This document shows, piece by piece, positions 14,188 through 30,747 of a stretch of 64,000 nucleotides of DNA; positions within the stretch are counted from its first letter, which is position 1, and each line of letters starts with the position of its first letter. A program made the translations under genes and the position numbers. Source of the DNA: Brevundimonas sp. (GTDB lineage Bacteria > Pseudomonadota > Alphaproteobacteria > Caulobacterales > Caulobacteraceae); NCBI RefSeq assembly GCF_013912065.1, contig NZ_JACESA010000017.1, positions 835 through 64,834 of the forward strand. The letters run 5' to 3'. Below the pieces are notes generated by a model, which saw only the letters and a list, made by a program, of their open reading frames with translations, was not told the origin of the DNA and searched no databases.

Positions 14188-14699
14188 CAGGCGGCAGGCT
14201 TATCTAGCAGGAAGTCACCCAGTATGGCCCAGCTGGCCGACTTTGCCGACAAGGATATTGCATGGGCGGGGCTGGACGACGGCAAATCGACCAGAGCGAT
14301 CTTGTTCAGATTCCCCAGGAACCGTCGCCCCATCTTCGCCGCCAGTCCGCCGTTGAAGGCTACTGCGCGTAGTTCGGGCAGACCTTCGATCAGGCCTCGC
14401 AGGTCGGCGGCTTCAGGCGACCGGATCGCCGCATCCAGGCTGCCGGACCGTTCGGCCGAGGCGATCACGTCCCACAGGCCGACGCCGCGCGCCCTCAACC
14501 GCTCCAGCCGCGCGTCATAGGGGAGTGCGGCGACCGCCTCGCCCAGCACGCCGCCGATCAACGCCCAGAAACCGTTGCGGGGATGAGCATAGTATTGGGC
14601 CGCCTTCAGCGAGGCGTCGCCGGGCAGGCTGCCGAGGATCAGCAGCCGCGTGCGCGCATCGACGACGGGGGTGAAGCCGATGCGGCGGGCGTCGCTCAC
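14187..14699 (-). CDS. UDG superfamily family-6 hypoxanthine (deoxyinosine) DNA glycosylase
   Basis: [27 protein letters not shown]; GTGA overlap with purB, TGATG overlap with purU. Confidence 0.82.
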
Positions 14700-15997
14700 C
14701 CCTCGCCGAACACCCGTTTGAACACCACGTCCACGTTCTTGGTATGATAGCCTAGGTCGAACAGGGCCTCGAGCTGTTCGGCGGGCAGGGTGACCCGCTC
14801 GTCCGCCTTCAGGAAGTCCAGGAACACCCCCTCGCAGCGCCAGACCTTCATGGCGTTCTCCTGCACGGCGGCATAGGCGGCCTCACGCGAGATTCCGGCC
14901 TGGGTCAGGGCCAACATGACCCGTTGCGAGTGAACCAGACCGCCCAGACGGTCGATGTTCGCCTGCATGTTCTCGGGATAGACGTTCAGCCGCTCGACCA
15001 CGCTGGCCAACCTTTGGAGGGCGAAGTCCAGGTGGATGGTGGCGTCGGGGCCGATGCCGCGCTCGACCGACGAATGGCTGATGTCCCGTTCGTGCCACAG
15101 GGCGACGTTTTCCATCGCCGGGGTCACGGCCGAACGGACCAGACGGGCTAGGCCGGTCAGGTTCTCGGTCAGGATCGGGTTGCGCTTGTGCGGCATGGCC
15201 GACGAGCCCTTCTGGCCCTTGTCGAAGAATTCTTCGGCCTCCAACACCTCGGTGCGCTGCAGGTGTCGGATTTCGACGGCCAGGCGTTCGACCGAGCTGG
15301 CGACCACGCCCAGAGCGGCGAAGAAGGCGGCGTGGCGATCACGCGGGATGACCTGGGTCGAGACCGGTTCGACCTGCAGGCCCATCTTGTCGGCCACATA
15401 CTGCTCGACCGCCGGATCGACGTTGGCGAAGGTGCCGACGGCGCCCGAGATGGCGCAGGTGGCGATCTCTTCCTTGGCGGTGATCAGGCGACGTTTGGCG
15501 CGCTGGAACTCTGCGTGATAGCCGGCCAGCTTCAGGCCGAAGGTCACCGGCTCGGCGTGGATGCCGTGCGAACGCCCGACGGTCGGGGTGTATTTATGCT
15601 CCTTGGCGCGCTTTTCCAGCGCGGCCAGGACGCGGTCGACGCCGTCGATCAGCAGGTCCGACGACCGGGCCAGCTGAACCGCGAAACAGGTGTCCAGCAC
15701 GTCCGACGAGGTCATACCCTGGTGCAGGAAGCGCGCCTCGTCGCCGACGATCTCGGCGACATGGGTCAGGAAGGCGATGACATCGTGCTTGGTGGTGCGT
15801 TCGATCTCGTCGATGCGGTCGGCGTCGAAGCTCGCATCCTTGCCCTTGGCCCAGATGGCCTCGGCCGCCTCGGTCGGGATGACGCCCAGTTCGGCCATCT
15901 TGGTCGCGGCATGGGCCTCGATCTCGAACCAGATCTTGTACTTGGTCTCCTGCGACCAGATGGCGGCGGCGTCGGGGCGGGAATAGCGCGTGATCAT
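14696..15997 (-). CDS. purB: Adenylosuccinate lyase
   Basis: MITRYSR, HDVIAF, GRSHGIHAEP, GSSAMPHKRNP. Confidence 0.97.
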   Translation of the reverse strand: MITRYSRPDAAAIWSQETKYKIWFEIEAHAATKMAELGVIPTEAAEAIWAKGKDASFDADRIDEIERTTKHDVIAFLTHVAEIVGDEARFLHQGMTSSDVLDTCFAVQLARSSDLLIDGVDRVLAALEKRAKEHKYTPTVGRSHGIHAEPVTFGLKLAGYHAEFQRAKRRLITAKEEIATCAISGAVGTFANVDPAVEQYVADKMGLQVEPVSTQVIPRDRHAAFFAALGVVASSVERLAVEIRHLQRTEVLEAEEFFDKGQKGSSAMPHKRNPILTENLTGLARLVRSAVTPAMENVALWHERDISHSSVERGIGPDATIHLDFALQRLASVVERLNVYPENMQANIDRLGGLVHSQRVMLALTQAGISREAAYAAVQENAMKVWRCEGVFLDFLKADERVTLPAEQLEALFDLGYHTKNVDVVFKRVFGEG

Positions 15998-16058: not shown

Positions 16059-17429
16059 CTAGTCGAATGAAGGCAGAGCGCGTTTGCGCCGTGAGCGCGG
16101 GCGTGACTTGGAAGAAGACGAAGGCAAGCGTTTTCCGGTGGCGACCTCCGTAAGCGCCAGGGTGATCAGTAGGAACGCCCAAACAATGACGTCGCGGTCG
16201 AACAGGCCCGACTCGGTCATGTTGTGACCGACGCAGAAGATGATCATCCCAATCAGCAGAGCGCCGCGCCAGCGCGAAACAGATTGACTGGAAAGCAGCT
16301 TGTATAAGGGCATCACGAAGGCCGCGACGACCGCCAGGATCAGGCCGGGGATGCCCACCTGCGCGGCGAGGTCGAGATAGCCGTTATGTCCGCTGGCGAT
16401 GGTCGTCACCCAAGTCTTCGAATAGGTGAAAATCGGACTCTCGTCGCCGATGTTCCAGAAAGCGCCATATCCAGAGCCGTTCAGCGGATGATCCCGGATA
16501 TATGAGATGAGGTGAGGCCAGATCTGCACACGCCCGGTAAACGCGGTTGGCTTGGCAAACGGGCCGACAGATTCTACCCAGCTGTCGGCCCAGAACAGCA
16601 TTACAGCCATGCCCGCCAACGCGGCGAACGGGACCGCGATCATCCTGGCGCGGGGGCTGAGAAACAGGAACATGGCGCCGCCCAACAGGCCCATGGCGGC
16701 CATGCCCATTGAGGTCTTCGACTCTGTTTTAAAAAGGAAAAAGGCGGCCGCCAGCACCACAACTGTTCGGATCGCTACGCCTACGATCAGTTCTCGTGGG
16801 ACTTTGGCCTTGGTGTCTGACTGCGTCTTGCGAGGCAGCTTTGGCGGGGCAAAGGTGAAGAACAGGATTGTGAAGGCGCAAAACTCACCGGTGAAATTCT
16901 TTTGCGGCAATACCCCTCGCCAGTCACCGATCAGACCACGATCTTCACCTGCCGTAAAATGATGGATCGCGGTTGCCGGCGACACAGCCACAGCAATGAA
17001 ATTGATGAAAAGTAGAACCGCAAGGCCCACCATAATCGTCTTGACGGTACGGTCGTAACCGCAATCGTCAACCGCCAAGAATACGATCCAGATGATGATG
17101 GTGGTCAGCAGGACGCGCCGTACGCTGATCATCGGCACATCCGACCATGCCACGCTGATCCAGCACCAGGCTACAGCCGCCATTAGGATAATCGGCAGGC
17201 TGAGCAGCTTAGACGGCTTCTTGAAGACTCCGGCCGCCCACATTGTGCCGAGAAGAAGGGCCGTAAAGATGGCCTGCCGCAGAATGTTGCCGCTCGGAGG
17301 CCCGCCATTCGTCATGGCCGGTCCCAGAACCACGAGGACGAACAGCGCGATCAGGGTCGCAACCGCCGGGACGAAGAGGGGGCGGCCACCAGATTTTCGG
17401 GCTGGAATGTCGTTCGCCGTGGCGGTCAT
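16059..17429 (-). CDS. Wzy/O-antigen ligase family protein (ExoQ-like polymerase), paralog 1
   Basis: About 10-12 TM; WRGVLPQKN, TGRVQIW, GSGYGAFW, HNGYLD. Confidence 0.8.
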   Translation of the reverse strand: MTATANDIPARKSGGRPLFVPAVATLIALFVLVVLGPAMTNGGPPSGNILRQAIFTALLLGTMWAAGVFKKPSKLLSLPIILMAAVAWCWISVAWSDVPMISVRRVLLTTIIIWIVFLAVDDCGYDRTVKTIMVGLAVLLFINFIAVAVSPATAIHHFTAGEDRGLIGDWRGVLPQKNFTGEFCAFTILFFTFAPPKLPRKTQSDTKAKVPRELIVGVAIRTVVVLAAAFFLFKTESKTSMGMAAMGLLGGAMFLFLSPRARMIAVPFAALAGMAVMLFWADSWVESVGPFAKPTAFTGRVQIWPHLISYIRDHPLNGSGYGAFWNIGDESPIFTYSKTWVTTIASGHNGYLDLAAQVGIPGLILAVVAAFVMPLYKLLSSQSVSRWRGALLIGMIIFCVGHNMTESGLFDRDVIVWAFLLITLALTEVATGKRLPSSSSKSRPRSRRKRALPSFD

Positions 17430-18850
17430 GCCTTGGATTCTCCGTCTTGGCTTGGCGCGAGGCGGCTATTGGGTAGCGGCTTGAACCTGCCGGTCCAGGC
17501 GAAATAGAGCGGCCCCGGCGCTTCTGGAGGCTGACGGGTCGAGATGGTGATCAGGGCCAAGGTCATCATGAAGAAGACCTGAACAATAGCGTCGCGATCC
17601 ATCACGCTGCTTTCGGTAAAATTATGACCGATGCAGAAGATCAGCATGGAGATCAGCAAGGCGCCGCTTCTCCGACTGATCGTTCGACTCCAGAGCAGCC
17701 GAGACAGCGGCGCTACGACAAGGGCCAGAACAGTCAGCAACAGGCCGATGACACCGACCGTGACCAGTATGTCCAGGTAGCCGTTGTGGCCGGTTCCCAA
17801 TAGGCGAACCCACGTGGAGGTGTAGTAGTAGACAGGACTGTTTACGCCGATATTCCAGAAGGAGCCGTACCCAGTGCCCAGCAGCCAGTGGTCGTTGGCA
17901 TAGGATATTAGAACGCCCCAAATCGTACCACGCCCAGTAAGGGCGCTGCCTTGACTGAGAGTGTATATGGCGTCCATCCAATAAAACTGCCCAAACAGGA
18001 CAGCCAGTCCGACTGTAATGACTGTGGCTGGGATCAAAAGCGCTCTAAATTTTGGATCGTAGGAGAGGTACAGACCTCCCAGAACCAGACTTCCGAACGT
18101 CAGCGCCAGCGATGTCTTTGATCCGGTCTTGTAGAGGAAGAATACGGTTGCGATTATTGAAATCAGGCGAAGGTAAGGTTGAAGCCAGCCGCCTGCGAAG
18201 ATGAGCAATAGGATTGTTATCGCGCAAACGGCGCCCGCAAAATTTTTCTGAGGCAACGCTCCTTTCCAGTCGCCAACCAGACCAGCATCGAGCACTTCAC
18301 GCGCCTGGTGGATACCGGCGTGAGGAAACAGCACGACCATGACGTAGTTGATCAGGAGCACCGCCAGAAGAGTAAGCAGGGCTGTCCTCACGGCCCGCTC
18401 ATAGCCTGTGCGCTCGACGATCATGAAGACAGTCCAGATAATGATCGTTGTCAGGAGTAGTCGGCGAAAGGCGATCGACGGCTCGAGAGACCACGACAGA
18501 CTGATCCAGCACCAGGCGATCAGGATCCATAGGGTAAGGGGCGGGCTCAGAAATATGCGGGGGGTCTGCAAGGCCTTGGCCGAGACGATGACGAAGCCGA
18601 AAACGAGGATATAGAGAGCTTGCCGAAAGATATTGCCATCGCCGGTGGACAGCATTGTCTTCTGGGCTTGAAGTGGCCCCAGGCCGACGATCACGATCAG
18701 CAGAAGACCAGCTAGAGCCCATCCGCAAAGTTTGGCGGACAGGTCATGGTTGGCGTCGACCGGGAGGGGGGCGGCAAGCATCATGTTTCCGTCCGCGAAT
18801 AGACTTCCGTATGACGGCTGCGCTGCAGGCTCAAGTGCGGAGCGGCTCAC
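17426..18850 (-). CDS. Wzy/O-antigen ligase family protein (ExoQ-like polymerase), paralog 2
   Basis: WKGALPQKN, TGRGTIW, GTGYGSFW, HNGYLD; ATGA overlap with paralog 1. Confidence 0.8.
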   Translation of the reverse strand: MSRSALEPAAQPSYGSLFADGNMMLAAPLPVDANHDLSAKLCGWALAGLLLIVIVGLGPLQAQKTMLSTGDGNIFRQALYILVFGFVIVSAKALQTPRIFLSPPLTLWILIAWCWISLSWSLEPSIAFRRLLLTTIIIWTVFMIVERTGYERAVRTALLTLLAVLLINYVMVVLFPHAGIHQAREVLDAGLVGDWKGALPQKNFAGAVCAITILLLIFAGGWLQPYLRLISIIATVFFLYKTGSKTSLALTFGSLVLGGLYLSYDPKFRALLIPATVITVGLAVLFGQFYWMDAIYTLSQGSALTGRGTIWGVLISYANDHWLLGTGYGSFWNIGVNSPVYYYTSTWVRLLGTGHNGYLDILVTVGVIGLLLTVLALVVAPLSRLLWSRTISRRSGALLISMLIFCIGHNFTESSVMDRDAIVQVFFMMTLALITISTRQPPEAPGPLYFAWTGRFKPLPNSRLAPSQDGESKA

Positions 18851-18862
18851 AATATCGATGGG

Positions 18863-20035
18863 TCAGACTAGGAGACGGGAGTAGGCGGTGAACATCCGGT
18901 CGTATGTCGCTTCTGAACCCAGTCGAGCGGCGCGCTGGGCATAATTGCTGTAGTGCGACGCATCTGTCAGAAGCGCCTTGAGTTCTCGCGCCAAGGCCTC
19001 GTGATCCAGTACGCCGACGACCACCCCGCATAGTTGTCCATCCGCTCCACTTATGCCTTCCACCTGGACCGGGACGTCCGACACGACCAAGGGCAAGCCC
19101 AACTGAGCCGCCTCAATGAGGGCGAGGCTGTGGCCCTCGAAAAGACTTGGCTGGACGAAGACATCACCTTCCGCCAGCAAGGCGAGGGTCTCATCTCGTG
19201 GATGAAATCCAACGAACTCGACTTTCTGTTGCACGCCCAACTGAGCCGCCAGCGCCTTGAGTTCGGCCTCGTCCGGGCCGGCGCCAAGAATCTTGATCTT
19301 GATGTTGCTGTCAAGGTGCTCCGCTGCGCGGATCAAGGTGGGGTAGTTTTTCTGTGGCACCAGACGACCAGCGGCGATTACAATCTGGCCTCGCGAAGAT
19401 TTTTGGGATCGCTCTGACGCCAGCATGCCAAGTTTCGCCTCTATTCGGGGCGGTAGGGCGTTAAGAATGGTTCTCAGCTTGGCGCGATAGGCGGCAGGTT
19501 TCTTTCGGTGCGACCGCGCCACGGTATTGGACACCGCTACGATATCGCTGACGGACGGCAGGGTGCCGGCCAAACCGTCGATTAGGTTGAGTAGCGGCGC
19601 ATAGGTTTCCGAGGGAGAGTGGTGCGAGGTAATCACCTTGGTGGGTGCGCCGGACAGCATCACTGCTATGGGCGCCAGTATGTTTGCTGCTGGAAGCGCC
19701 GTGATAACGGCGTCTGGACGCTCTCTGGCCAGGAAGCTCACGAAATTCTTCAACAGTCTGAACAACTCGAACGGAGAATGTGGTCGCCGCTCCGTCATAT
19801 GAGTCCAGAGCAATCCTTCGGGAGTCTTCAGCCGCGATTCATCCGACGGATAGAGCGCCGCGAGTGTGACTTGGTCTCCCCGCGCTTGGAAGCCTTCCGC
19901 GAGGTTGGACCAGATCTCCTGCGCGCCACCCGCATTGGAATGGGTCACCATGAATACGAGACGCCGAGCCACGGATTTTGAGACCGTCGCCGCACCAGTC
20001 GATTCGAGTGGCTCGGTGTCAGATTGGCCGGTCAT
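18863..20035 (-). CDS. GT4 family glycosyltransferase
   Basis: GGAQ N-terminal loop, AGRLVPQKNY, PSLFEGHSLALIEA (EX7E); start uncertain. Confidence 0.88.
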   Translation of the reverse strand: MTGQSDTEPLESTGAATVSKSVARRLVFMVTHSNAGGAQEIWSNLAEGFQARGDQVTLAALYPSDESRLKTPEGLLWTHMTERRPHSPFELFRLLKNFVSFLARERPDAVITALPAANILAPIAVMLSGAPTKVITSHHSPSETYAPLLNLIDGLAGTLPSVSDIVAVSNTVARSHRKKPAAYRAKLRTILNALPPRIEAKLGMLASERSQKSSRGQIVIAAGRLVPQKNYPTLIRAAEHLDSNIKIKILGAGPDEAELKALAAQLGVQQKVEFVGFHPRDETLALLAEGDVFVQPSLFEGHSLALIEAAQLGLPLVVSDVPVQVEGISGADGQLCGVVVGVLDHEALARELKALLTDASHYSNYAQRAARLGSEATYDRMFTAYSRLLV

Positions 20036-20873
20036 CGACAGGGGCGTCCTCATTGGTCGTGTGCAATTTCGTTCGTGCGATGCGGACGTCTTCCTGTCGG
20101 TCCGTGGTCTGGGTGAGCAGATAATAAATTGCGGGCAGATTGGTCGCCATATACCGTCGCCCCAATCTGATCGGTTCGTTCAGGGCTCTATGGAGCCATT
20201 CTAGGCCGATGCTCTGCATCCAGACCGGCGCGCGCCTGAACTTTCCCGAATAGTGGTCGAACATGCCGCCGCAGGTCCGAAGCCATGCCAGTCCCTGAAG
20301 ATGATGCTGATTGCGAAGGGCGAAGGATTCCTGAAGGGGGCTGCCCAAGCCGATCCAGAGGACATCCGCGCCCGAGGCGCGAATCTCGTCGCAAATATCA
20401 ATCTCGTCCTCGGCGTTGAAATATCCGTGTCGCACTCCGACAATCTGCAGATCAGGGTGAAGTGCTCGGAAATGCGTGGCGGCCGTGTCTGCAACACCTG
20501 GTTTGGCGCCCAGGAAGTAAAAGCGGATTCCCTCTTTCGCCGCGGCCTCGGCGGCGTCGTTGATGAAGTCGGTGGTCGCCACGCGTTCTTCCAGCGGTTC
20601 CTGACAGAACAGACGGGTGGCCATGACCAGGGGCATGCCGTCAGCATCGATCACATCCGCCTTCAGCAAGATATTGCGGAAGCTGGCGTCGCGGTGAAAA
20701 TCGGCGATTACGGCGCCATTGGATGAGACGACGAGGCGAGGCAGCCGCTCGGGGTCGGCTCGAGTTCGCCGACAGTCGTCGATCATCAACAGGGCCAATT
20801 CTGCGCGGGTGATCCGCGTCGTGGGGACGCCGCCGACGAGAACGGTAGGGAAAGTACCGAGGCCTTCAGTCAT
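20019..20873 (-). CDS. WecB/TagA/CpsF family glycosyltransferase (GT26)
   Basis: ADGMPLV, ERVATTD, FYFLGA, HGYF, GLGSPLQE, GLEWLHR; start at MTEG with GAGG RBS. Confidence 0.88.
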   Translation of the reverse strand: MTEGLGTFPTVLVGGVPTTRITRAELALLMIDDCRRTRADPERLPRLVVSSNGAVIADFHRDASFRNILLKADVIDADGMPLVMATRLFCQEPLEERVATTDFINDAAEAAAKEGIRFYFLGAKPGVADTAATHFRALHPDLQIVGVRHGYFNAEDEIDICDEIRASGADVLWIGLGSPLQESFALRNQHHLQGLAWLRTCGGMFDHYSGKFRRAPVWMQSIGLEWLHRALNEPIRLGRRYMATNLPAIYYLLTQTTDRQEDVRIARTKLHTTNEDAPVDDRPI

Positions 20874-21128: not shown

Positions 21129-22535
21129 TCACTTCCCGGCTCGAGCCTTGCCATATGAAAACTGCAAGCCGAGCAAATACGCCCAGAAGGCCGCTATGGA
21201 CGGCACCTGCAACGCATAGTCGGTAGTTCCATGCAGGAGCACCACCAGATTGGCGGCGATCAATCCCCGTTGAATCGCTCCGCCAGGCGCCTGATGCGAA
21301 CGTCGGAGGCCGCCGCCGATCAGGACTGCTATCAAACCGAACATCGGCAGGGCGCCGAACACCCCCGCCTCCTCCAACCACTGGATATAGACATTATGGG
21401 CGGCCCGGATCGAACGCAGCGCGCCGTAATTTTCAGGTGTCATCTGCTGGGCGTTGACCGCGCTGAAACTGCCGAGTCCATGTCCGAACAGGGGTGCATC
21501 CAAAAAGGCGCGCCAATGGGCCGTAAAAATGACGCTGCGGTTCGCCGCGTCCGCGTCGAGAGTGTCGAACCGCGCCCACAGAGTGTCCGCGCCTGCGATG
21601 CCAATCAGCCCAACGAGTGCGCCGGCCACGGTTAGGCCAATGGTTCGTTTAGACAGGCTGTCTTTCCGGCTGAGAGCCTCCCAGACGAGAAAAACGATCA
21701 CAGCCAGGGACGTGGCCGCCAGGCCCATACGAGAGGCGGTGGCCAACAGGCAGCCAACAAACAGCATGACGCAGAAAACGGATGCACCGAACGCGACGAG
21801 ACGGCCGAATGTGCGGCCAAGGCGCAGGCTGCGGCTGGCTCTCGCCAGTACCGCTAAGGAAAGGACCAGCAGAATGCCGTAGACGGTGGCGCCGCTGTTC
21901 GCGCTCAGGAACCCGCCGGTGAGACGTCCATCTTGGCGAACCTGCAAGTCCGCGATGAACATCACGATCCCAACAACCGCCCAAATGGCTCCGATGGTGA
22001 TGACTGTGCGGACCGCGCCGGCTACGCGACGGGTTCTGACGCCTTCAAAACAGCCGAGTAAGAAAACTCCAGCCAGAGCGCAAAGCTTGATGATCTCAAC
22101 GAGTGTCGCCGATCTGTCCAGGGAGATGGCGCTTTGCCCATGGATCGCCGCCCAAGGGGAGTTCGTACCGGAAGCGGGGGCGAGCAGAGTCCAGACGGCT
22201 AAGCCGAGCACGGCAACAAACAGCATGACCGCAGTGCGGCCTGGCCAGATCAGGGACAACTCGCCCTTGCGGCCCGCTAACAAAACCATAGCCGGCAGAA
22301 GGAGTACGATCGCCGCCGCGAACCAGAGCGCCGCCGTCGGTTGAGCGCCGCCGCCGAGCAGATGAACGATGCTGAACAGCGCGATCGGGCCGCTCAGGAG
22401 CAGATAGTCCGCAAGTCTGAGGCTGCGGGCGCGGCGGTTGGACAACGATCGGGCCGAAGGTGGCCGACCACGCGCGCGCCGCCTTGTGGCGGCGAGAGGG
22501 GCTGGCTGCTGCTCGACCCCGGGGTCGGCGTTCAT
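21129..22535 (-). CDS. O-antigen ligase / O-oligosaccharyltransferase-like protein (divergent from the two paralogs)
   Basis: RLTGGFLSAN, TASRMG, GHGLGSF, AHNVYIQWL.E.G, LHGTTDYALQVP. Confidence 0.75.
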   Translation of the reverse strand: MNADPGVEQQPAPLAATRRRARGRPPSARSLSNRRARSLRLADYLLLSGPIALFSIVHLLGGGAQPTAALWFAAAIVLLLPAMVLLAGRKGELSLIWPGRTAVMLFVAVLGLAVWTLLAPASGTNSPWAAIHGQSAISLDRSATLVEIIKLCALAGVFLLGCFEGVRTRRVAGAVRTVITIGAIWAVVGIVMFIADLQVRQDGRLTGGFLSANSGATVYGILLVLSLAVLARASRSLRLGRTFGRLVAFGASVFCVMLFVGCLLATASRMGLAATSLAVIVFLVWEALSRKDSLSKRTIGLTVAGALVGLIGIAGADTLWARFDTLDADAANRSVIFTAHWRAFLDAPLFGHGLGSFSAVNAQQMTPENYGALRSIRAAHNVYIQWLEEAGVFGALPMFGLIAVLIGGGLRRSHQAPGGAIQRGLIAANLVVLLHGTTDYALQVPSIAAFWAYLLGLQFSYGKARAGK

Positions 22536-22554
22536 ATGACGTAGCCTGTGGGCG

Positions 22555-23871
22555 TCAGAACTGGGCGACGAGAGAAACGTACATTCTCATAACATCGTAA
22601 TTCGGCCCAGAAAGAGCGCCGTCGGAAGCCTGGTCGATATAGGCCAGGGTAGTGGTTACGCCATAGTGGCGATTGATTAGGTACGTGCCGGAAACAGAGG
22701 CGTTCAGCCGCTGATCGTCGCGGTCGATGCCATTGTAATCGTCTTCGCTGTAGGTCACCTGGGCCGTGAGGATAAGATTGCGCAGCAGTTCATGATCGAT
22801 CTTGCCGCCGACCTCAGTACTCAGATAACCGGCGGCGCCGATAATTCCCGCATCCTGAACCGTGCGTGACACGGACGCCGTGACGGTAGTCAGTTCCGTC
22901 GGGAACCATTCCAGTTGCGCCCGTCCACCGAAGCCGTCGATATCGGTATAGGCGGCGTCATCGAAGCTCTGACTGATATAGCCTGCGGCGATTTCTCCGC
23001 GGCTGACCGCGCCCAGTTCGAAGTTGACGCCGACTAGGGCTTCATAACCTGAGGAGTCGCGTGCAGGCGTGGTGCTGCTCGCGTCACTGTCATAGTCCCT
23101 TTCATTGAGCGACACCTGACCGAAAACAGCGGTCGCAGGGCTGATGGCATAGTCCATACGACCCGCGACATTGAAGATGCTGCGGTCACGATCGCTTTGG
23201 TCGATCACTGCGCCGGCGGTCGTCCGGCCGTCCTCGTAGTCAAACGATCTTACGTCGGCGCGACCGGAGAGACGTACACGGCCTTTAGAGCGCACAGCGC
23301 CGACATAAGCAGAGGCCATGTCGAATTCGATTGGATTTTCCGCAGTCTGGGCGGTGTTCGTCGAGGTGCGAGGTTCCGTAACATGGGCGAACTCGGCGCC
23401 GCCGGTCAGGTTTGAGCCCCGTACGATGTCGAGACGACCCGTCGTGCCCACCGTCCAGTCGGTCGTGTTTTCGCTGTCGAAGTCGACGTTCTGGCTGATG
23501 GTGCTGCGGCCATAGGCCTGGATGTAGTGGCGAGACCAATCGGATTGGGCCACTATTTCCGGGCGGATACGGAAGACGACATCGTCCTGCTTGTCCGTGT
23601 CCACAGCGAAGATGTTGTCGTTATACTCCGCATCCACCTGAAGCTTCGGGAAAATGACGAACCCCCCCGAAGGGATGCCGAGCGCCTCATAATCCGGCCG
23701 GGGGCGTTCACGTACGCCTACGCCACGATCACGCGCGAACATGTCGGCGGATCGGTCCTGAGCAGCTCTGACGGACTGGGCTGCGGCGTCTGTCGAGACG
23801 GCGGCTGCACCCACAATCACGAACGAAGCTGCGCTGGCCAGCAGGAATACCTGGCTGCTCTTGTTGCGCAT
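22555..23871 (-). CDS. Polysaccharide-locus outer-membrane beta-barrel protein (BBP2/EpsX/Wzp-like)
   Basis: Signal peptide; RPRPDYEALGI, YNDNIFA; alternating beta-strands; C-terminal beta-signal SLVAQF. Confidence 0.78.
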   Translation of the reverse strand: MRNKSSQVFLLASAASFVIVGAAAVSTDAAAQSVRAAQDRSADMFARDRGVGVRERPRPDYEALGIPSGGFVIFPKLQVDAEYNDNIFAVDTDKQDDVVFRIRPEIVAQSDWSRHYIQAYGRSTISQNVDFDSENTTDWTVGTTGRLDIVRGSNLTGGAEFAHVTEPRTSTNTAQTAENPIEFDMASAYVGAVRSKGRVRLSGRADVRSFDYEDGRTTAGAVIDQSDRDRSIFNVAGRMDYAISPATAVFGQVSLNERDYDSDASSTTPARDSSGYEALVGVNFELGAVSRGEIAAGYISQSFDDAAYTDIDGFGGRAQLEWFPTELTTVTASVSRTVQDAGIIGAAGYLSTEVGGKIDHELLRNLILTAQVTYSEDDYNGIDRDDQRLNASVSGTYLINRHYGVTTTLAYIDQASDGALSGPNYDVMRMYVSLVAQF

Positions 23872-23948
23872 GATCTGACAGTCCTTGAAAACGCTTATCG
23901 GGGAGTGTGCGGCAGGGGCGGTTCTGATCGCCTTAGCCAGGCGATATA

Positions 23949-24458
23949 CTAGGCTGCAGTGTCGTAGTCTGGCCCGCCGCCGCCGGAACCAGAGACCGGC
24001 GGCGCGCCGAACGCGGGTGCGCCCGTGTCGGCGCCTGTCGCGGCCGGAGCGTCCTGCTCCAGAGTTTGGCGAATCCGATCAATGACCTGATTGATGGCGG
24101 CTTCGGCAGGCGCTGACAAGGTTCCGGCCGCCTTCATCTGATCTCTCGCAGCGATCAAAGCGTCGATCGCGACCTGAGGCGCGGCGCCGCTGGCTATGAT
24201 TGCCCCCTCGAGTGCTGTGACATAGACGGCCTGGGCTTCAGCTGGCGTCAGCGCCTGGCCGGCGAGCGTATTGGCTGTTTGGGTGACCGTCGCCTTGACT
24301 TGGATAGTCAGGGCAGCCGTCGATTCAGCGGAGGGTGCGGGCTCTTGAGCCTCAGCCAAGCGCCAGATGGCGGCTGTGACCGGGCCCGCCGCCAGCGTCA
24401 AAACCGCTGCAGCAATCGCGACCCGTCCAGTAGAACGCCCAAGCTTGAACTGTTTCAT
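23949..24458 (-). CDS. Exported Ala/Thr/Pro-rich protein with Gly-rich C-terminus (GSGGGGPDYDTAA)
   Basis: Signal-peptide-like N-terminus; AGGGGA RBS before ATG 24458; no recognised family. Confidence 0.75.
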   Translation of the reverse strand: MKQFKLGRSTGRVAIAAAVLTLAAGPVTAAIWRLAEAQEPAPSAESTAALTIQVKATVTQTANTLAGQALTPAEAQAVYVTALEGAIIASGAAPQVAIDALIAARDQMKAAGTLSAPAEAAINQVIDRIRQTLEQDAPAATGADTGAPAFGAPPVSGSGGGGPDYDTAA

Positions 24459-24556
24459 GGTCAATCCCCTTTCACGGCAGTCGTGGAACGATCTCCGTGT
24501 GTCTGTCAGTAAATATACGGCTTATGTTGGTTAAAAGCCAGAGTTAAAGAGCGTTG

Positions 24557-25201
24557 TTATGTTGTGACGCGTCGAACCTCTTGGGCCAACGCGTCGTCGG
24601 ACCCGGTGGCCGCGATATTCATGTAGACGTTCCGAACTGTAAGCTTGGCCGCTAGGCGACCCGCTGGGTCGGCGATGGAGTCCACCAAGGCGCCGCTGCC
24701 CTTATGATAGGTGGCGAATACCCGAAGTTCGTTCAGAGCCGCAACGCGTATGGCGGGTGTGACCGACTGCCAGTTTTCAAACACGAAACGAAGTCGCCAC
24801 CGGCTCACGCCAGGGCCCAATGGAGCGACCCGGTATGAAATCTCAAGGTTGCGCAGGCTTTCGGCGTCAAGCGAACCTGTCTCCTCCTTGCGGATATAGG
24901 CTGCGCGCAACCATGCGCTTGCAGTAAACGGCGAAGACTCAAGAGTTTTGTCATTCTCGCGAGCGGCGCGATCAAGATCGTGAGCCGAAACCTGCTCCGA
25001 TCTCAGAGCGAGATCCGCACGTTTTTCATGATGGGCTGCCAGGCTCAGAGGAGCGGCAAGCGCTGGCCAGGTCAGGCCCGACGCAAGAATGATCGCCGAG
25101 ATTGAGGTGGCTCCGCTCAAGGCCAGAACCATCGGCGTGAACAAGCGGCGTCCGTCATATACGGATCGTCTCTTCGACCTTTTTTTCGACCTCTGTAACA
25201 T
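24557..25201 (-). CDS. Membrane-anchored, TPR-like helical hypothetical protein
   Basis: Basic N-terminus plus TM helix, then SPFTASAWLRAAY and APLGPGVSRWRL; alternative start 25132. Confidence 0.65.
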   Translation of the reverse strand: MLQRSKKRSKRRSVYDGRRLFTPMVLALSGATSISAIILASGLTWPALAAPLSLAAHHEKRADLALRSEQVSAHDLDRAARENDKTLESSPFTASAWLRAAYIRKEETGSLDAESLRNLEISYRVAPLGPGVSRWRLRFVFENWQSVTPAIRVAALNELRVFATYHKGSGALVDSIADPAGRLAAKLTVRNVYMNIAATGSDDALAQEVRRVTT

Positions 25202-25302: not shown

Positions 25303-26232
25303 TTAGAGCTGGCCCATAGTATTGTCGTGATCGACCGCCTGCCGTTTCAGCCAGTTGGCGAAGGCCGTTGCGCTGGGTGAGGGCGGGCGGTCGCGGGGCT
25401 GGACGACGTAATAGGCGAAGCCGACCGCCTCCGACCCGTCGGGGAAGGGGGCGACCAGCCGGCCGGAGGCGAGGTCGGCCTGGGCCAGGGTGCGTTTGGC
25501 AAGCGCCACGCCGCGGCCGGCGATGGCGGCCTCGATCAACAGGCCTGACTGGTTGAAACGCGAGCCCCGGCGCGGGTCGGGGTGGCGCACGCCGCGCGCC
25601 TTCAGCCACATGGCCCAGTCGGGACGGCTGGGGTCGCCGTCGTTCGACATGTCGTGCAGCAGGGTGTGGCCCACGAGGTCGGCCGGTTTGCGGATGGGCT
25701 GTTCGCCGACCATCAGCGCCGGGGCGCAGACCGGCAGGACCGTCTCGGTCATCAGCCGATCCACGGTCAGGCCGGGATAGTCGCCGGGGCCGTAACGAAC
25801 CGCAAGATCGACCTTGCCCTCGGTCAGGTCGGCCGGCTCCATGTCGGCCGAGATCCACAGCTCGATCTCGGGATGGGCGGTGTGGAAGTCGTCCATGCGC
25901 GGCATCAGCCATTTGGAGGCGAAGCCGGGGGCGACGCTGATCGACACCTGTTTACGGCGCGGCGGTTCACGCAGCAGGGCCGAGGCGTCCATCAGCCGCT
26001 CGAAGCCTTCGCGCAGCAGGGGCACGGAGGATCGGCCGAGGTCGGTCAACTGCAGGCCGCGCGCCTCGCGCACGAACAGGGGGCCGCCGACAATGTCTTC
26101 CAGCAGGCGGATCTGCTGGCTGACGGCGCCCGGCGTCACGGCCAGTTCATCGGCGGCGCGCGAGAAGTTCAGGTGACGTGCGGCGGCCTCGAAGGCGCGC
26201 AGGGCGTTGAGCGGGAGCAGGGAACGGGCCAT
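25303..26232 (-). CDS. LysR-family regulator, GcvA/TrpI/AmpR subgroup
   Basis: LPLNALRAFEAAARHLNFSRAADEL.VTPGAVSQQI; WLMPR; AAIAGRGVAL. Confidence 0.93.
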   Translation of the reverse strand: MARSLLPLNALRAFEAAARHLNFSRAADELAVTPGAVSQQIRLLEDIVGGPLFVREARGLQLTDLGRSSVPLLREGFERLMDASALLREPPRRKQVSISVAPGFASKWLMPRMDDFHTAHPEIELWISADMEPADLTEGKVDLAVRYGPGDYPGLTVDRLMTETVLPVCAPALMVGEQPIRKPADLVGHTLLHDMSNDGDPSRPDWAMWLKARGVRHPDPRRGSRFNQSGLLIEAAIAGRGVALAKRTLAQADLASGRLVAPFPDGSEAVGFAYYVVQPRDRPPSPSATAFANWLKRQAVDHDNTMGQL

Positions 26233-26236
26233 CGCC

Positions 26237-26251
26237 GTTAGAAATCCTATC
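26237..26251. promoter_or_regulatory. Candidate LysR recognition site GTTAG-N5-CTATC
   Basis: Imperfect palindrome just upstream of the LysR start, in the divergent LysR/cysG gap. Confidence 0.45.
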
Positions 26252-28014: not shown

Positions 28015-29684
28015 TGTATCGCTATGACGAGTTTGACCACGCCCTGGTGCGTGAACGGGTCGAGGAGTTTTCCGACCAGGTGGCGCGCCGCGCCTCGGGC
28101 GCCTTGAGCGAGGACGAGTTCAAGCCGCTGCGGCTGATGAACGGCGTCTATCTGCAACTGCACGCCTATATGCTGCGGGTCGCCATTCCCTATGGGACGT
28201 TCAACAGCCGCCAGATGCGCCGGCTGGCCCATATCGCCCGCACCTATGACAAGGGCTACGGCCATTTCACCACGCGGACGAACATCCAGTACAACTGGCC
28301 GGCCCTGACCGATCTGCCGGCGATCCTGAGCGATCTGGCCGAGGTCGAGATGCACGCCATCCAGACCTCGGGCAACTGCATCCGCAACACCACGACCGAC
28401 GTCTTCGCCGGGGCGGCGGATGACGAGATCGAGGATCCCCGTCCCTGGTGCGAGATCATCCGCCAGTGGTCGACGATCCACCCGGAGTTCAGCTTCCTGC
28501 CGCGCAAGTTCAAGATCGCGGTGATCGGGGCCGAGAAGGATCGGGCGGCGATCCGGACCCATGACGTGGGCTTGCAGATCGTGCGCGGCGCCGACGGCGG
28601 GACGGCTTTCCGCGTCTTCGTCGGCGGCGGGCAGGGGCGTCTGCCCCATATCGGCCAGGAGATCGCTTCGGCCGTGCCGGCGGCGGAGCTTCTGGCCTAT
28701 CTGACGGCCATCCTGCGGGCGTGGAACCTGCTGGGACGGCGCGACAATATCCATAAGGCGCGGATCAAGATCCTGGTCGCCTCGGTCGGGCTGGAGGCCT
28801 TCCGCGAGGAAGTGGACAGGCACTACGCCACCCTGCGCCACGAAGACCTGCGGATCCCCGAGGACGAGGCTGAGCGGATCAAAGCCTATTTCGCCCCGCC
28901 GCCGTTCGATGATCTGCCCAAGGCCAGCGCCCCGTTTGACCGCGCCCTGCTGGCCGATCCGGACTTCGCCCGGTTTGCGCGCAACAATGTGCGACGTCAC
29001 CGCCAGGCGGGCTATGCCTCGGTGGTGGTGTCGTTGAAGCCGGTCGGCGGCGTGCCGGGCGACATTACGGCGGATCAGATGGACGCGGTGGCCGACCTGG
29101 CCGAACGCTACGCCTTCGATGAACTGCGCGCCGCCTATGAGCAGAACCTGGTCCTGCCGCATGTGAAGCTGGACGACGTGCCGACGCTGTGGCGGGCGCT
29201 GCGCGAGGCGGGGCTGGCGACGGCCAACGCCGATCTGGCGACGGACGTCATCGCCTGTCCGGGGCTAGATTATTGCAGCCTGGCCAACGCCCGGTCGATC
29301 CCGGTGGCCCAGGCCCTGTCCAAACGTCTGGCCGATATGGACTATCAGGAGAAGCTGGGGCCGGTCCGCATCAATATGAGCGGGTGTATCAACGCCTGCG
29401 GCCACCACCACGTCGGCCACATCGGTGTCTTGGGCGTCGATCGCAAGGGCGAGGAATATTACCAAATCACCGTCGGCGGTTCGCCCGACGAACAGGCCGC
29501 CCTGGGCGATATCGTCGGCAAGAGCCTGCCGGCCGAAGAGGTTGCGCCGGCGATCCAGCGGACCCTGGACCGCTATCTGCAAATCCGCGCCGAGGGCGAG
29601 CGGTTCATCGACACGGTGCGCCGCGTCGGTCCCGATCCCTTCCGTGACGCCATCTATGAGACGCTCGATGCTGCAAACGCTTGA
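28014..29684 (+). CDS. cysI: Sulfite reductase hemoprotein (nitrite/sulfite reductase family)
   Basis: HFTTRTNIQ, TSGNCIRN, LPRKFKIA, ACPGLDYC and SGCINACG siroheme/4Fe-4S cysteines. Confidence 0.93.
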   Translation: MYRYDEFDHALVRERVEEFSDQVARRASGALSEDEFKPLRLMNGVYLQLHAYMLRVAIPYGTFNSRQMRRLAHIARTYDKGYGHFTTRTNIQYNWPALTDLPAILSDLAEVEMHAIQTSGNCIRNTTTDVFAGAADDEIEDPRPWCEIIRQWSTIHPEFSFLPRKFKIAVIGAEKDRAAIRTHDVGLQIVRGADGGTAFRVFVGGGQGRLPHIGQEIASAVPAAELLAYLTAILRAWNLLGRRDNIHKARIKILVASVGLEAFREEVDRHYATLRHEDLRIPEDEAERIKAYFAPPPFDDLPKASAPFDRALLADPDFARFARNNVRRHRQAGYASVVVSLKPVGGVPGDITADQMDAVADLAERYAFDELRAAYEQNLVLPHVKLDDVPTLWRALREAGLATANADLATDVIACPGLDYCSLANARSIPVAQALSKRLADMDYQEKLGPVRINMSGCINACGHHHVGHIGVLGVDRKGEEYYQITVGGSPDEQAALGDIVGKSLPAEEVAPAIQRTLDRYLQIRAEGERFIDTVRRVGPDPFRDAIYETLDAANA

Positions 29685-30747
29685 GGGGGTTCAGAACGGA
29701 CCGCGCCTGTCGGTGACGACGCCGCTGGAAGAGGTCGAGGCCGCCGCGGCTGCGACCGACGTCCTGGTGCTGGAGTTCGACGCCTTTCGCGACGGGCGCG
29801 GCTTCTCGCTGGCGGCGGTGCTGCGTGAGCGGGGCTATGCCGGGCGTCTGATCGCGGCGGGCAAGGTCTTGCCGGATCAGGCGCGACACCTGCGACGCTC
29901 GGGCTTCGACGCGGTGGAGCTGGCGCCGGGGGCGGACACGGCGGCCTGGGCGCGGATGGACCAGGCCTTCAGCGGATCCTATCAGCCGGCGGTCGATCCG
30001 GGGCCGACCATCTGGCAAAGGCGGCGGGCGGCGTCGAACGACCCTGATCTGCAAGCCCTGGCCGACCGGCTGAACCGCGAGACCGAAGGCAAGGACGCGT
30101 CCGAGATCCTGAAGGCGGCGCTGGACCCGGCCCTGGGGCTGAGGGTCGGCGCCATATCCTCGTTCGGGGCGGAGTCGGCGGCCCTGCTGCACATTGTCGC
30201 CGAGACGGACCGGGACGTGCCGGTGGTGTTTCTGGAGACCGGCCAGCATTTCCTCCAGACCCTGTCCTATCGCACTCAGTTGACCAAGGCCCTGGGTCTG
30301 ACCGACGTGCGGCTGGTCACGCCGGATGCGGACGAGAAGGCCAGGCTGGACGCCCGCGACGACCTGTGGCGGACCGACGCCGACGCCTGCTGCGATCTGC
30401 GCAAGGTGCGGCCGCTGGCCCGCGCGACGGTCGGGTTCAACGCCGTAATCACCGGGCGCAAACGCTATCAGGCCGCGACGCGGGCCGAGCTGAAGCCGTT
30501 CGAGGTGCTGGACGGGGTGCTGCGGATCAATCCGCTGGCCGACTGGGACGCCGATGATGTCGAAACCTGGCTGGAGGCGCACGACCTGCCGCGTCACCCC
30601 CTGGTCGAGCAGGGCTATCGCTCCATCGGCTGCTGGCCGTGCACGCGTGCGGTTCAGGATGACGAAGAGGCGCGGGCCGGACGCTGGTCGGGGATGGACA
30701 AGGTCGAGTGCGGCATCCACCTAGGGCGACGTCAGGTCGCGGCCTGA
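29668..30747 (+). CDS. cysH: Fusion of DUF934 and APS/PAPS reductase (CysH)
   Basis: N-part F..FRDGRGFS, GYAGRL, VLPDQ, RSGFD, YQPA (DUF934); C-part SSFGAES, CCDLRKV, GYRSIGCWPCT, ECGIH; no stop between them. Confidence 0.88.
   Translation: MLQTLEGVQNGPRLSVTTPLEEVEAAAAATDVLVLEFDAFRDGRGFSLAAVLRERGYAGRLIAAGKVLPDQARHLRRSGFDAVELAPGADTAAWARMDQAFSGSYQPAVDPGPTIWQRRRAASNDPDLQALADRLNRETEGKDASEILKAALDPALGLRVGAISSFGAESAALLHIVAETDRDVPVVFLETGQHFLQTLSYRTQLTKALGLTDVRLVTPDADEKARLDARDDLWRTDADACCDLRKVRPLARATVGFNAVITGRKRYQAATRAELKPFEVLDGVLRINPLADWDADDVETWLEAHDLPRHPLVEQGYRSIGCWPCTRAVQDDEEARAGRWSGMDKVECGIHLGRRQVAA

Follow-up and report, generated by a model that had tools for sequence, protein, structure and literature searches.

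The four genes at 21129-25201 of the window (the whole stretch of Brevundimonas sp. DNA that was analysed, 64,000 nucleotides) most probably encode the core that a Wzx/Wzy-dependent capsule or EPS pathway of the Caulobacteraceae has in the periplasm and outer membrane, with a translocon built from a class-3 OPX protein and a beta-barrel (probability roughly 0.78). Compared by sequence, the module is the orthologue of the Caulobacter crescentus capsule operon CCNA_00161-00164, part of the locus CCNA_00161-00168, and because its genes are the counterpart of this operon, sugar-coat machinery is more likely than a dedicated glycoprotein system. The glycoprotein module proposed in an earlier note on this DNA was not borne out as a self-standing system; in Caulobacter the barrel and the Wzy_C enzyme of the locus are needed for the capsule (PMC4241560). 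The best reading of the module is a capsule polymerisation and export core with two uncharacterised accessory parts. The region contains the following genes.

16059..18850, minus strand: tandem pair of Wzy_C proteins, 17426-18850 and 16059-17429 (PF04932)
18863..20053, minus strand: GT4 glycosyltransferase (PF00534, E 6e-31)
20019..20870, minus strand: WecG/TagA/CpsF-family glycosyltransferase (PF03808, E 3e-56)
21129..22535, minus strand: WzyC_3, Wzy_C-superfamily (GT-C fold) membrane enzyme, 468 aa (PF04932, E 2.6e-17)
22555..23871, minus strand: BBP2_2 outer-membrane beta-barrel, orthologue of CCNA_00162 (PF10082, E 5.4e-117)
23949..24458, minus strand: p171, secreted 169-aa protein (ORF with a signal-type N-terminus)
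24557..25201, minus strand: p214, 214 aa, detached C-terminal module of the Wzy_C enzyme by alignment to the fused orthologue
25303..26250, minus strand: LysR-family regulator (PF00126 and PF03466)

The four core ORFs are co-directional and lie where the earlier note had placed them, and its description of their kinds was accurate: a TM + TPR-like protein, a secreted 169-aa protein, a BBP2_2 barrel and a divergent third Wzy_C protein. In the co-occurrence check that it had suggested, exactly these four genes stand together in the relatives L020/G261 and L025, bounded by the same LysR and purB genes; the four genes are a conserved unit. The LysR gene is the conserved upstream flank of the island and also flanks it in relatives, and the GC content of the island (16-25 kb) is 58-63%, versus 65-70% in the flanks. 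The WecG-type, GT4 and paired Wzy_C genes are an accessory cassette attached to this core, and the WecG/TagA/CpsF gene is missing from both L020 and L025. The paired Wzy_C proteins are 43% identical to one another and both carry the PQKN and GHNGYLD motifs; against solved structures, their family profile matched WaaL (7tpg_B, E 9e-11) and gave no match to 9rmk.

In Caulobacter vibrioides (locus L084), a p171-like ORF, a BBP2_2 barrel, a Wzc-like PCP and a 657-aa Wzy_C protein are encoded downstream of gyrB, followed by BTLCP (HvyA), a metallophosphatase and a short OPX, an order that agrees with the published CCNA_00162-00168 capsule locus; the p171-like ORF is equated with CCNA_00161 by position only. 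Capsulation of C. crescentus is abolished by deletion of CCNA_00162, 00163, 00164 or 00167 and by a transposon insertion in CCNA_00168, and CCNA_00161 is not among the insertions reported from the transposon screen for capsule-less mutants (PMC4241560). CCNA_00161-4 was reported as a single operon, over which the RNA read density is highest at the 5' genes and declines toward the 3' end (PMC4117421). The Brevundimonas genome shares with the NA1000 capsule locus the barrel, an orthologue about 41% identical to that of C. vibrioides, and the Wzy_C enzyme, likewise orthologous and equipped with a TPR-like C-domain. A p171-like gene holds the first position in both, and both have the accessory set of Wzc-like PCP, short OPX, metallophosphatase and HvyA-type BTLCP. 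The Brevundimonas version differs in that two genes, lying on either side of p171 and the barrel, make up the Wzy_C enzyme, the accessory genes are on other contigs, the WecG/GT4/two-Wzy_C cassette is attached, and the p171 tail reads GGGGPDY... instead of ...[FY]DPCAGVxAAYCG. The module is also rare in Brevundimonas, with eight barrel-positive genomes of the genus in the sample. The partner genes, each single-copy, were located as follows; in relatives, the OPX and PCP genes share the barrel locus.

C29:2663-4840: Wzc-like PCP (co-polymerase) with a C-terminal Tyr cluster
C2:57256-57849: short class-3 OPX lipoprotein (lipobox-like AACG; ends ERFF)
C2:57898-58659: metallophosphatase (Wzb-like phosphatase)
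C2:56078-57097: HvyA-like protease gene (BTLCP)

Members of the Wzy_C superfamily (Wzy, WaaL and PglL) have a PF04932 domain in a protein of about 12 TM helices; WzyC_3 has this domain, and the model of its fused orthologue has a helical TM bundle. Aligned to CCNA_00164, WzyC_3 corresponds as an orthologue to the first ~470 residues, and it is 35-62% identical to orthologues in three genera. In public sources these orthologues are named 'O-antigen ligase family protein'. Where the pair has PQKN and GHNGYLD, WzyC_3 has AHNVYIQWLEEAG and LLHGTTDYALQVP, so the motif contrast drawn in the earlier note stands, with the spacing of its 'AHN..Q' and 'H..DY' one residue off. Similarity between WzyC_3 and the pair was not found by tblastn at E<1e-6, and by its motifs and profile WzyC_3 is in a different subfamily. 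The best and sole significant solved relative of its family profile (A4) is 9rmk_A, 'Oligosaccharyltransferase' (E 4e-8, covering profile positions 227-496), whereas WaaL 7tpg was not matched even at E<=10; of the former label 'WaaL/O-oligosaccharyltransferase-like', the second half holds by profile and the first does not. WzyC_3 is thus nearer in sequence to the solved O-oligosaccharyltransferase (O-OTase) than to WaaL, as expected of a PglL-type enzyme, but the PglL_A (PF15864) and Wzy_C_2 (PF11846) domains gave no match at E<=10 in WzyC_3, p214 or the fused orthologue. The Foldseek comparison with PglL and WaaL that had been suggested, run on a model of the fused orthologue, came out on the WaaL side, with 7tpg on top (E 1.9e-5). 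WzyC_3 does not fit the description of a WaaL (about 400 aa, no extra periplasmic C-domain, similarity to the solved WaaL); a TM+TPR C-domain belongs to the enzyme, whether joined to it or in trans. Six Wzy_C-domain genes are present in the genome, one of which adjoins a Wzx-like gene on the PCP contig, and therefore WzyC_3 need not be the polymerase. In addition, WzyC_3 is kept across genera and loci with differing glycosyltransferase sets, and this conservation, together with the O-OTase profile match, is easier to reconcile with a glycan-unspecific transferase than with a polymerase specific to one repeat unit. The activity of WzyC_3 may be polymerisation or terminal transfer.

p214 is predicted to have a basic cytoplasmic N-terminus, a single TM helix and a periplasmic TPR-like helical domain. 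As a single sequence it has no family match at E<0.01 and stays below the Pfam cut-offs; it aligns to residues 473-646 of the 657-aa fused C. vibrioides protein (E 2e-11), and the two parts are a single protein in Caulobacter, neighbouring genes in Phenylobacterium and genes set apart here. On this alignment, p214 is the C-terminal domain of the Wzy_C enzyme, encoded on its own, and not the fourth independent component that it had been taken for. The label 'TPR-like' was confirmed in both sequence signature and helical-repeat fold: the p214 family profile matched the OGT TPR domain (E 1e-5) and a consensus TPR (1.6e-8), and the AF2 model of the fused orthologue (pLDDT 85, pTM 0.86) has a WaaL-like TM part and a TPR-like C-domain of eight C-terminal helices, which matches TPR proteins in Foldseek. 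The p214-only profile had no independent match to 9rmk. The family comprises 1344 representative clusters at E<=1e-3, standalone as well as fused; in 12 distant alphaproteobacterial loci, the p214-like gene adjoins a PCP gene in 11, with a barrel nearby in 9 and an OPX in 8. In Rhizobium, the Wzy-type protein PssT depends on its C-terminal part to interact with the co-polymerase PssP (PMC4182512), and by analogy the p214 TPR domain may tie the enzyme to both the Wzc co-polymerase and the translocon.

The single-copy barrel gene encodes a signal peptide and a C-terminal ...VAQF, and the protein covers positions 1-378 of the 378 in the PF10082 profile, indicating that it is full-length; it also weakly matches EpsL TIGR03014 (E 4e-13). 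Its family alignment comprises 80 Caulobacteraceae loci (Brevundimonas, Caulobacter and Phenylobacterium) at 38-80% identity, C. vibrioides included. The barrel is a candidate Wzp/EpsX-type polysaccharide porin: the EpsX/Wzp likeness put forward earlier holds by family and genome context, as this BBP2_2 barrel shares the genome with a cognate short class-3 OPX bearing a C-terminal aromatic motif and with a Wzc-type PCP. The Myxococcus xanthus EpsX and WzpB translocons (PMC9601211, PMC9603273, PMC12819527) likewise have a separate outer-membrane barrel, a Wzc-type PCP and a short OPX lipoprotein without an outer-membrane helix. The class-3 OPX WzaB docks on the porin WzpB via a C-terminal Phe-Phe motif (Phe203-Phe204), to which the terminal ERFF here compares (PMC12819527). 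In contrast, the OPX gene is unlinked here, and the portions available of these three sources (PMC9601211, PMC9603273, PMC12819527) describe nothing that corresponds to p171 or to the TM+TPR partner. Like the module here, the synthase-dependent systems AlgK-AlgE, PelB, PgaA and BcsC pair a periplasmic TPR-like scaffold with a polysaccharide barrel, presumably of the same 18-strand type, but in Brevundimonas a single TM helix holds the TPR module in the inner membrane as part of a Wzy_C enzyme, and the pathway is Wzx/Wzy-dependent with OPX and PCP.

The p171 ORF, with a GGGGA Shine-Dalgarno-like motif before its ATG at 24458, encodes a signal peptide, a four-helix bundle of Ala-rich helices and a disordered Gly/Pro/Ser/Thr tail (...GAPPVSGSGGGGPDYDTAA) ending ...GGGGPDYDTAA. 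In the AF2 model, residues 43-136 have a pLDDT of about 95-98 and the tail (137-169) about 56-65; the protein had no Pfam or NCBIfam match and its model no significant PDB match in Foldseek. The earlier picture of an exported protein with Ala/Ser/Thr/Pro-rich stretches and a distinctive GGGGPDY terminus is therefore correct. This end lies inside a block, P140-Y167, that is invariant among close relatives; no other part of the protein is as well conserved, so it is no chance stretch of low complexity. Iterated profile searches detected p171 in 74 of the 80 barrel loci, in all 74 directly upstream of the barrel on the same strand, wherever the Wzy and p214 genes sit. Its tail class tracks the barrel clade, and the tails of every clade are Ala/Pro/Gly-rich with Ser/Thr and a conserved Tyr/Phe. 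p171 appears to be restricted to the Caulobacteraceae, where the barrel is present in 55/56 p171-positive genomes; p171 was detected in 55/110 barrel-positive genomes, which suggests that it may be dispensable or may have diverged beyond detection. No p171 was detected in distant alphaproteobacterial loci with WzyC_3-like, p214-like, PCP, OPX and barrel genes.

Protein-glycosylating enzymes (PglL-type, TfpW, TMTCs) typically have an extra TM segment and a TPR-like periplasmic domain after their GT-C core. The resemblance of WzyC_3 and p214 to this architecture raises the alternative, which we consider unlikely, that together they form a PglL-like O-OTase placing an Und-PP-linked glycan or polymer on Ser, Thr or Tyr of the p171 tail, the glycoprotein then being exported, or threaded and anchored, through the barrel. 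The sole significant profile match, to 9rmk_A, with WaaL matched by the profile of the pair only, speaks for it, as do the composition of the disordered tails, the 35-62% identity of WzyC_3 across differing glycosyltransferase cassettes, and the availability of other Wzy_C genes as polymerases; p171 is also first in an operon whose Caulobacter counterpart has its RNA read density peak over the 5' genes (PMC4117421). Like 9rmk, the enzyme has a Wzy_C catalytic core with a conserved His-Asn loop motif, beyond which come one more TM segment and a periplasmic C-terminal region made of helices. However, the PglL-specific Pfam domains and an independent 9rmk match of the C-domain profile are missing, and the enzyme is encoded in a capsule export operon as two polypeptides. 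Moreover, distant Alphaproteobacteria keep the enzyme genes beside PCP, OPX and barrel without detectable p171, and therefore the enzyme must do something for which p171 is not required; p171 also escapes detection in half of the barrel-positive Caulobacteraceae genomes, and the capsule-less screen reported no CCNA_00161 insertion (PMC4241560).

More improbable still is that WzyC_3 is a WaaL-type ligase transferring capsule or O-antigen polymer to lipid A-core as a K-LPS-like anchor, with the barrel and p171 serving an unrelated export. The Pfam family name ('O-antigen ligase'), the public naming of the orthologues and the top Foldseek match of the fused model agree with such a ligase, but the WzyC_3 profile misses the very structure that the profile of the neighbouring pair matches, and the gene lies within a set for capsule export rather than in a cluster for the LPS core. 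WaaL proteins are not known to have a C-terminal TPR domain, which also argues against it. In addition, the capsule mutations tested for it (pleC, hvyA and CCNA_00163; CCNA_00164 is not listed) left the release of the S-layer protein RsaA unchanged (PMC4241560).

In the capsule pathway that we favour, Und-PP-linked repeat units would be made by the neighbouring WecG-type and GT4 transferases, with the priming and flipping enzymes encoded elsewhere. WzyC_3 would handle these units at the periplasmic face, working with p214, its own detached TM-anchored TPR-like domain, and p214 may be its link to co-polymerase and translocon. The polymer would leave through the Wzc co-polymerase (C29), the short OPX lipoprotein (C2, ...ERFF) and the BBP2_2 barrel. 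p171, a small secreted protein hitherto unstudied, would be a lineage-specific periplasmic accessory protein of the barrel, and its flexible tail, which has an aromatic motif at the end, most likely makes contact with the barrel or the translocon.

An island of eight co-directional minus-strand genes is flanked by purB (14696-15997) and a LysR gene (25303-26250); its GC content of 58-63% contrasts with 65-70% in the surroundings.

Genes of the island, in order of transcription
24557-25201, minus strand: first, p214, a protein with a transmembrane (TM) helix and a TPR-like domain, without family match
23949-24458, minus strand: second, p171, a secreted 169-aa protein, without family match
22555-23871, minus strand: third, the barrel, a full-length BBP2_2 outer-membrane protein (PF10082, E 5e-117)
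21129-22535, minus strand: fourth, WzyC_3, a divergent Wzy_C protein
20019-20870, minus strand: fifth, WecG-family glycosyltransferase
18863-20053, minus strand: sixth, GT4 glycosyltransferase
17426-18850 and 16059-17429, minus strand: seventh and eighth, the tandem Wzy_C pair

In a scan for promoters and terminators, the number of sites did not exceed that in shuffled sequence. The earlier note had set the first four genes apart, and both the four ORFs and the motif contrast on which it relied were confirmed: the pair carries PQKN and GHNGYLD, WzyC_3 has AHNVYIQWLEEAG and LLHGTTDYALQVP in their place (the spacing described earlier was wrong by one residue), and tblastn detected no similarity between WzyC_3 and the pair (E<1e-6). 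Its interpretation as a protein glycosylation and export module stands only in part. The set belongs to a known kind, the capsule/EPS polymerisation-export cores, and its parts have been rearranged and dispersed in the present genome. Elsewhere in the window, a DUF934-PAPS reductase fusion (29668-30747) is a single gene of ~358 aa that is also found in two related contigs (L001, 3613-4689; L004, 3632-4711), and is therefore conserved rather than an artefact of this assembly.

Using a barrel-family alignment, we retrieved 80 related loci from Brevundimonas, Caulobacter and Phenylobacterium. All eight genes and the same flanks are kept in close metagenomic relatives, and two loci (L020, in the congeneric genome G261, and L025) have nothing but p214, p171, the barrel and WzyC_3 between LysR and purB. 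A group of Caulobacter sp. genomes combines the four genes with WecG, GT4 and only one Wzy_C gene of the pair type, where the window has two, and has a short gene for an OPX export lipoprotein divergently upstream of this set. The first four genes form one unit; the remaining island genes form a cassette. Few genomes of the genus have the module, eight in the sample being barrel-positive. Brevundimonas bacteroides DSM 4726 has two full p214-p171-barrel-co-polymerase-Wzy copies on different contigs of one genome (L029, L042).

Downstream of gyrB, C. vibrioides (L084) encodes an Ala-rich secreted ORF, a BBP2_2 barrel, a Wzc-like co-polymerase (PCP; Wzz, GNVR and P-loop domains), a 657-aa Wzy_C protein, a BTLCP protease, a metallophosphatase and a short OPX (Poly_export and SLBB domains). 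This gene set is the published capsule locus CCNA_00162-00168, and the published antigen boundaries, residues 51-422 of CCNA_00162 and 481-620 of CCNA_00164, fit the ORFs here (PMC4241560). Capsulation needs CCNA_00162, 00163, 00164 and 00167, as judged from in-frame deletions that were each complemented, and CCNA_00168, as judged from a complemented transposon insertion, while CCNA_00166 encodes HvyA, a factor that restricts the capsule (PMC4241560). CCNA_00161-4 are reported to be a single operon, with RNA read density dropping toward the 3' genes (PMC4117421); from its position, we infer that the p171-like ORF is CCNA_00161. A Wzx/Wzy capsule pathway that exports through a class-3 OPX/beta-barrel translocon is a known kind of system, and the Caulobacter capsule locus has been defined genetically. 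Two conserved, uncharacterised components, the TM-anchored TPR-like module and p171, are not described in the literature that we consulted.

By tblastn, the partner genes of the unit were located on two other contigs, C2 and C29, each of them in a single copy in the genome.

Partner genes elsewhere in the genome
C29:2663-4840: PCP, whose C-terminus has a Tyr cluster and which shares 60% identity with the PCP that B. bacteroides encodes within the locus
C2:57256-57849: OPX lipoprotein, ending in GERFF
C2:57898-58659: metallophosphatase
C2:56078-57097: HvyA-like BTLCP protein

In Myxococcus, the class-3 OPX WzaB contacts the porin WzpB through its C-terminal Phe-Phe, without which secretion fails (PMC12819527). 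The genome holds three Bac_transf priming enzymes, three Wzx-like genes and six Wzy_C genes in total; one Wzy_C gene (at about 11.1 kb) and one Wzx-like gene (at about 12.6 kb) are on C29. This 15.4-kb contig also encodes a BNR/sialidase-like 805-aa protein, a UDP-glucose dehydrogenase and an epimerase, its PCP ends in the Tyr-rich tail ...GYYYSEYKKYYTA, and its genes probably account for biosynthesis in the same capsule pathway. C2:53587-58707 is a second capsule sub-locus, with a WecG-like glycosyltransferase, a SleB-like cell-wall hydrolase, the HvyA-like BTLCP, the class-3 OPX (ending in ERFF) and the metallophosphatase, which is Wzb-like; a SleB-like gene is near the module in 13 of the 80 related loci.

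The origin of p214 can be read from the relatives. It matches residues 473-646 of a fused Caulobacter protein (E 2e-11): Wzy_C and p214 are fused in Caulobacter and C. segnis FS, split but adjacent (Wzy, then p214) in Phenylobacterium, and split with p171 and the barrel in between in Brevundimonas and the window, with the break point in the cytoplasmic loop after TM12. p214 is the C-terminal domain of the Wzy_C enzyme in detached form. Its N-terminus, a basic stretch followed by one TM helix, puts the helical domain on the periplasmic side. For the fused orthologue, AF2 gave a confident model (pLDDT 85, pTM 0.86), which led Foldseek to WaaL 7tpg for the TM part (E 1.9e-5) and to TPR proteins for the C-domain. 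p214 itself had no Pfam/NCBIfam match at E<0.01, and its orthologues gave only sub-threshold TPR matches at E<=10; the family profile matched the OGT TPR domain (E 1e-5) and consensus TPR proteins. Protein searches with the fused-enzyme C-domain and with a distant p214-like protein returned close relatives only, with uninformative names.

An exhaustive profile search (E<=1e-3) collected 1344 representative clusters of the p214 family, mostly standalone proteins of ~180-240 aa, some being C-terminal domains of 600-670-aa proteins. Homologues occurred in 21 genomes of other genera among 400 alphaproteobacterial genomes sampled. A co-polymerase gene adjoins the p214-like gene in 11 of 12 distant loci, and a barrel (9/12), an OPX (8/12) or a WzyC_3-like gene (6/12) lies within 10 kb; these counts make the TM+TPR module a widespread, undescribed companion of the export machinery. 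In the Wzy-type PssT of Rhizobium leguminosarum, the C-terminal part is required for interaction with the co-polymerase (PMC4182512), an analogy which suggests that the module may have a coupling role. Its fusion to, or split from, a Wzy_C enzyme near the co-polymerase gene in many alphaproteobacterial families is a Rosetta-stone clue to the way in which polymerisation or terminal transfer is coupled to export. PssO of R. leguminosarum, considered as an analogue of p171 or p214, was set aside, as its source paper holds no sequence-level information.

We evaluated the enzyme type of WzyC_3 by profile comparison. The orthologue profile had one significant solved relative, 9rmk_A, 'Oligosaccharyltransferase' (E 4e-8), and no WaaL match at E<=10, whereas the control profile of the pair (16059-18850) matched the WaaL ligase 7tpg as its only solved relative (E 9e-11) and not 9rmk. 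The aligned 9rmk fragments presumably resemble Neisseria PglL. PglL-specific Pfam domains were absent from WzyC_3, the C-domain profile alone failed to reach 9rmk, and single-sequence PDB searches with WzyC_3 and with the barrel gave nothing useful. The orthologues are 35-62% identical across loci that differ in glycosyltransferase content, and other Wzy_C genes could serve as polymerase, namely the pair and the C29 copy in this genome and CCNA_00470 in Caulobacter. Together with the 9rmk match, this favours a step that is not specific for one glycan, for example terminal transfer or ligation. As a rough split, the activity would be that of a polymerase (45%), a transferase (40%) or something else (15%).

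The p171 family was found in 74 of the 80 barrel loci by an iterated profile, and in most of the six others the contig ends a short way upstream of the barrel. In 74/74 loci p171 is on the barrel strand, its stop codon ~57 bp (median) before the barrel's estimated start codon. This constant adjacency, wherever the enzyme genes lie, makes the barrel the most likely partner of p171. Among 301 sampled Caulobacteraceae genomes, p171 occurs in 56, of which 55 belong to the 110 barrel-positive ones; outside the family, 400 genomes yielded two weak matches only. All homologues start with a Sec-type signal peptide that ends in an AxA-Q-type motif. In the AF2 model, residues 43-136 fold into a compact bundle of four helices (pLDDT about 95-98) and the tail is disordered; Foldseek gave no match at E<=0.001, those listed being generic helical proteins, and no Pfam/NCBIfam model matched even at E<=10. 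The linker varies from about 30 to >150 residues. The tails are clade-specific, all with an aromatic residue near the end, often then x-Pro: G-rich ...[SP]DY(R)P.. in the Brevundimonas type, ...PAP[FY]DPCAGVxAAYCG in Caulobacter, and ...TxPIYVPPGATP and variants in Phenylobacterium. The tail class tracks the barrel tree. Three tandem p171-like domains occur in single open frames of 341-350 aa (G212:C16:548292-549221 and G222:C24:440-1366), and homologues of 246-319 aa with Pro-rich ends in L060 and L067, so the family tolerates large length changes. In L020, from a complete genome, the homologue (G261:C1:2742251-2742735) is in two frames near the Gly-rich tail, either by a frameshift or by an assembly error in the GGC-rich tract.

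The acceptor role proposed earlier, in which WzyC_3 would glycosylate p171, is possible: the tail composition fits it, as do the O-oligosaccharyltransferase-like features of the enzyme, but the enzyme and its TPR partner are widespread without p171. A PEP-CTERM/exosortase system was rejected, since the tail has neither a TM segment nor a basic C-terminus, the barrel scores 49 bits against an EpsL cut-off of 275 bits, and WzyC_3 matches no NCBIfam model and hence no exosortase-associated ligase family. A LapG-type 'AAG' cleavage motif in p171 was also discarded as too weak: in the loop between helices 3 and 4, AAG is confined to the clade of the window, other clades having A/S-G.

In 61 of the 80 Caulobacteraceae loci, an HvyA-like BTLCP gene is found no more than 10 kb away, in many cases immediately before p214 or Wzy on the upstream side; the 12 distant loci have none. 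p171 and the in-cluster HvyA gene are Caulobacteraceae-specific additions to a widespread alphaproteobacterial core (barrel, OPX, PCP, TM-TPR and Wzy_C). To our knowledge, no substrate of HvyA has become known since 2014. Ardissone et al. checked HvyA-dependent changes for CCNA_00162, 00163, 00164, 00167 and 00168, a list that CCNA_00161 is outside (PMC4241560). This gap and the shared restriction of p171 and the HvyA gene led us to a speculative reading, to which we give, as a whole, roughly one chance in eight. p171 (the CCNA_00161 family) would be a periplasmic carrier or tether, its tail loaded with capsule polymer by a PglL-like two-piece enzyme (WzyC_3 and p214, equivalent to CCNA_00164) and threaded through the OPX/barrel while the bundle stays in the periplasm; HvyA would cut the tether, stripping or preventing the capsule, in parallel to LapG, which frees LapA from its outer-membrane pore. 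The p171-HvyA correlation is a lead, no more.

Taken together, p171, which immediately precedes the barrel gene wherever it was detected and which opens the capsule operon of a model organism, and p214 are concrete candidates for the release or anchoring of the Wzy-dependent capsule polymer at the surface and for the target of HvyA, and both roles are testable by standard genetics in C. crescentus NA1000. If the tether reading were true, p171 would be the missing link in Caulobacter capsule control.
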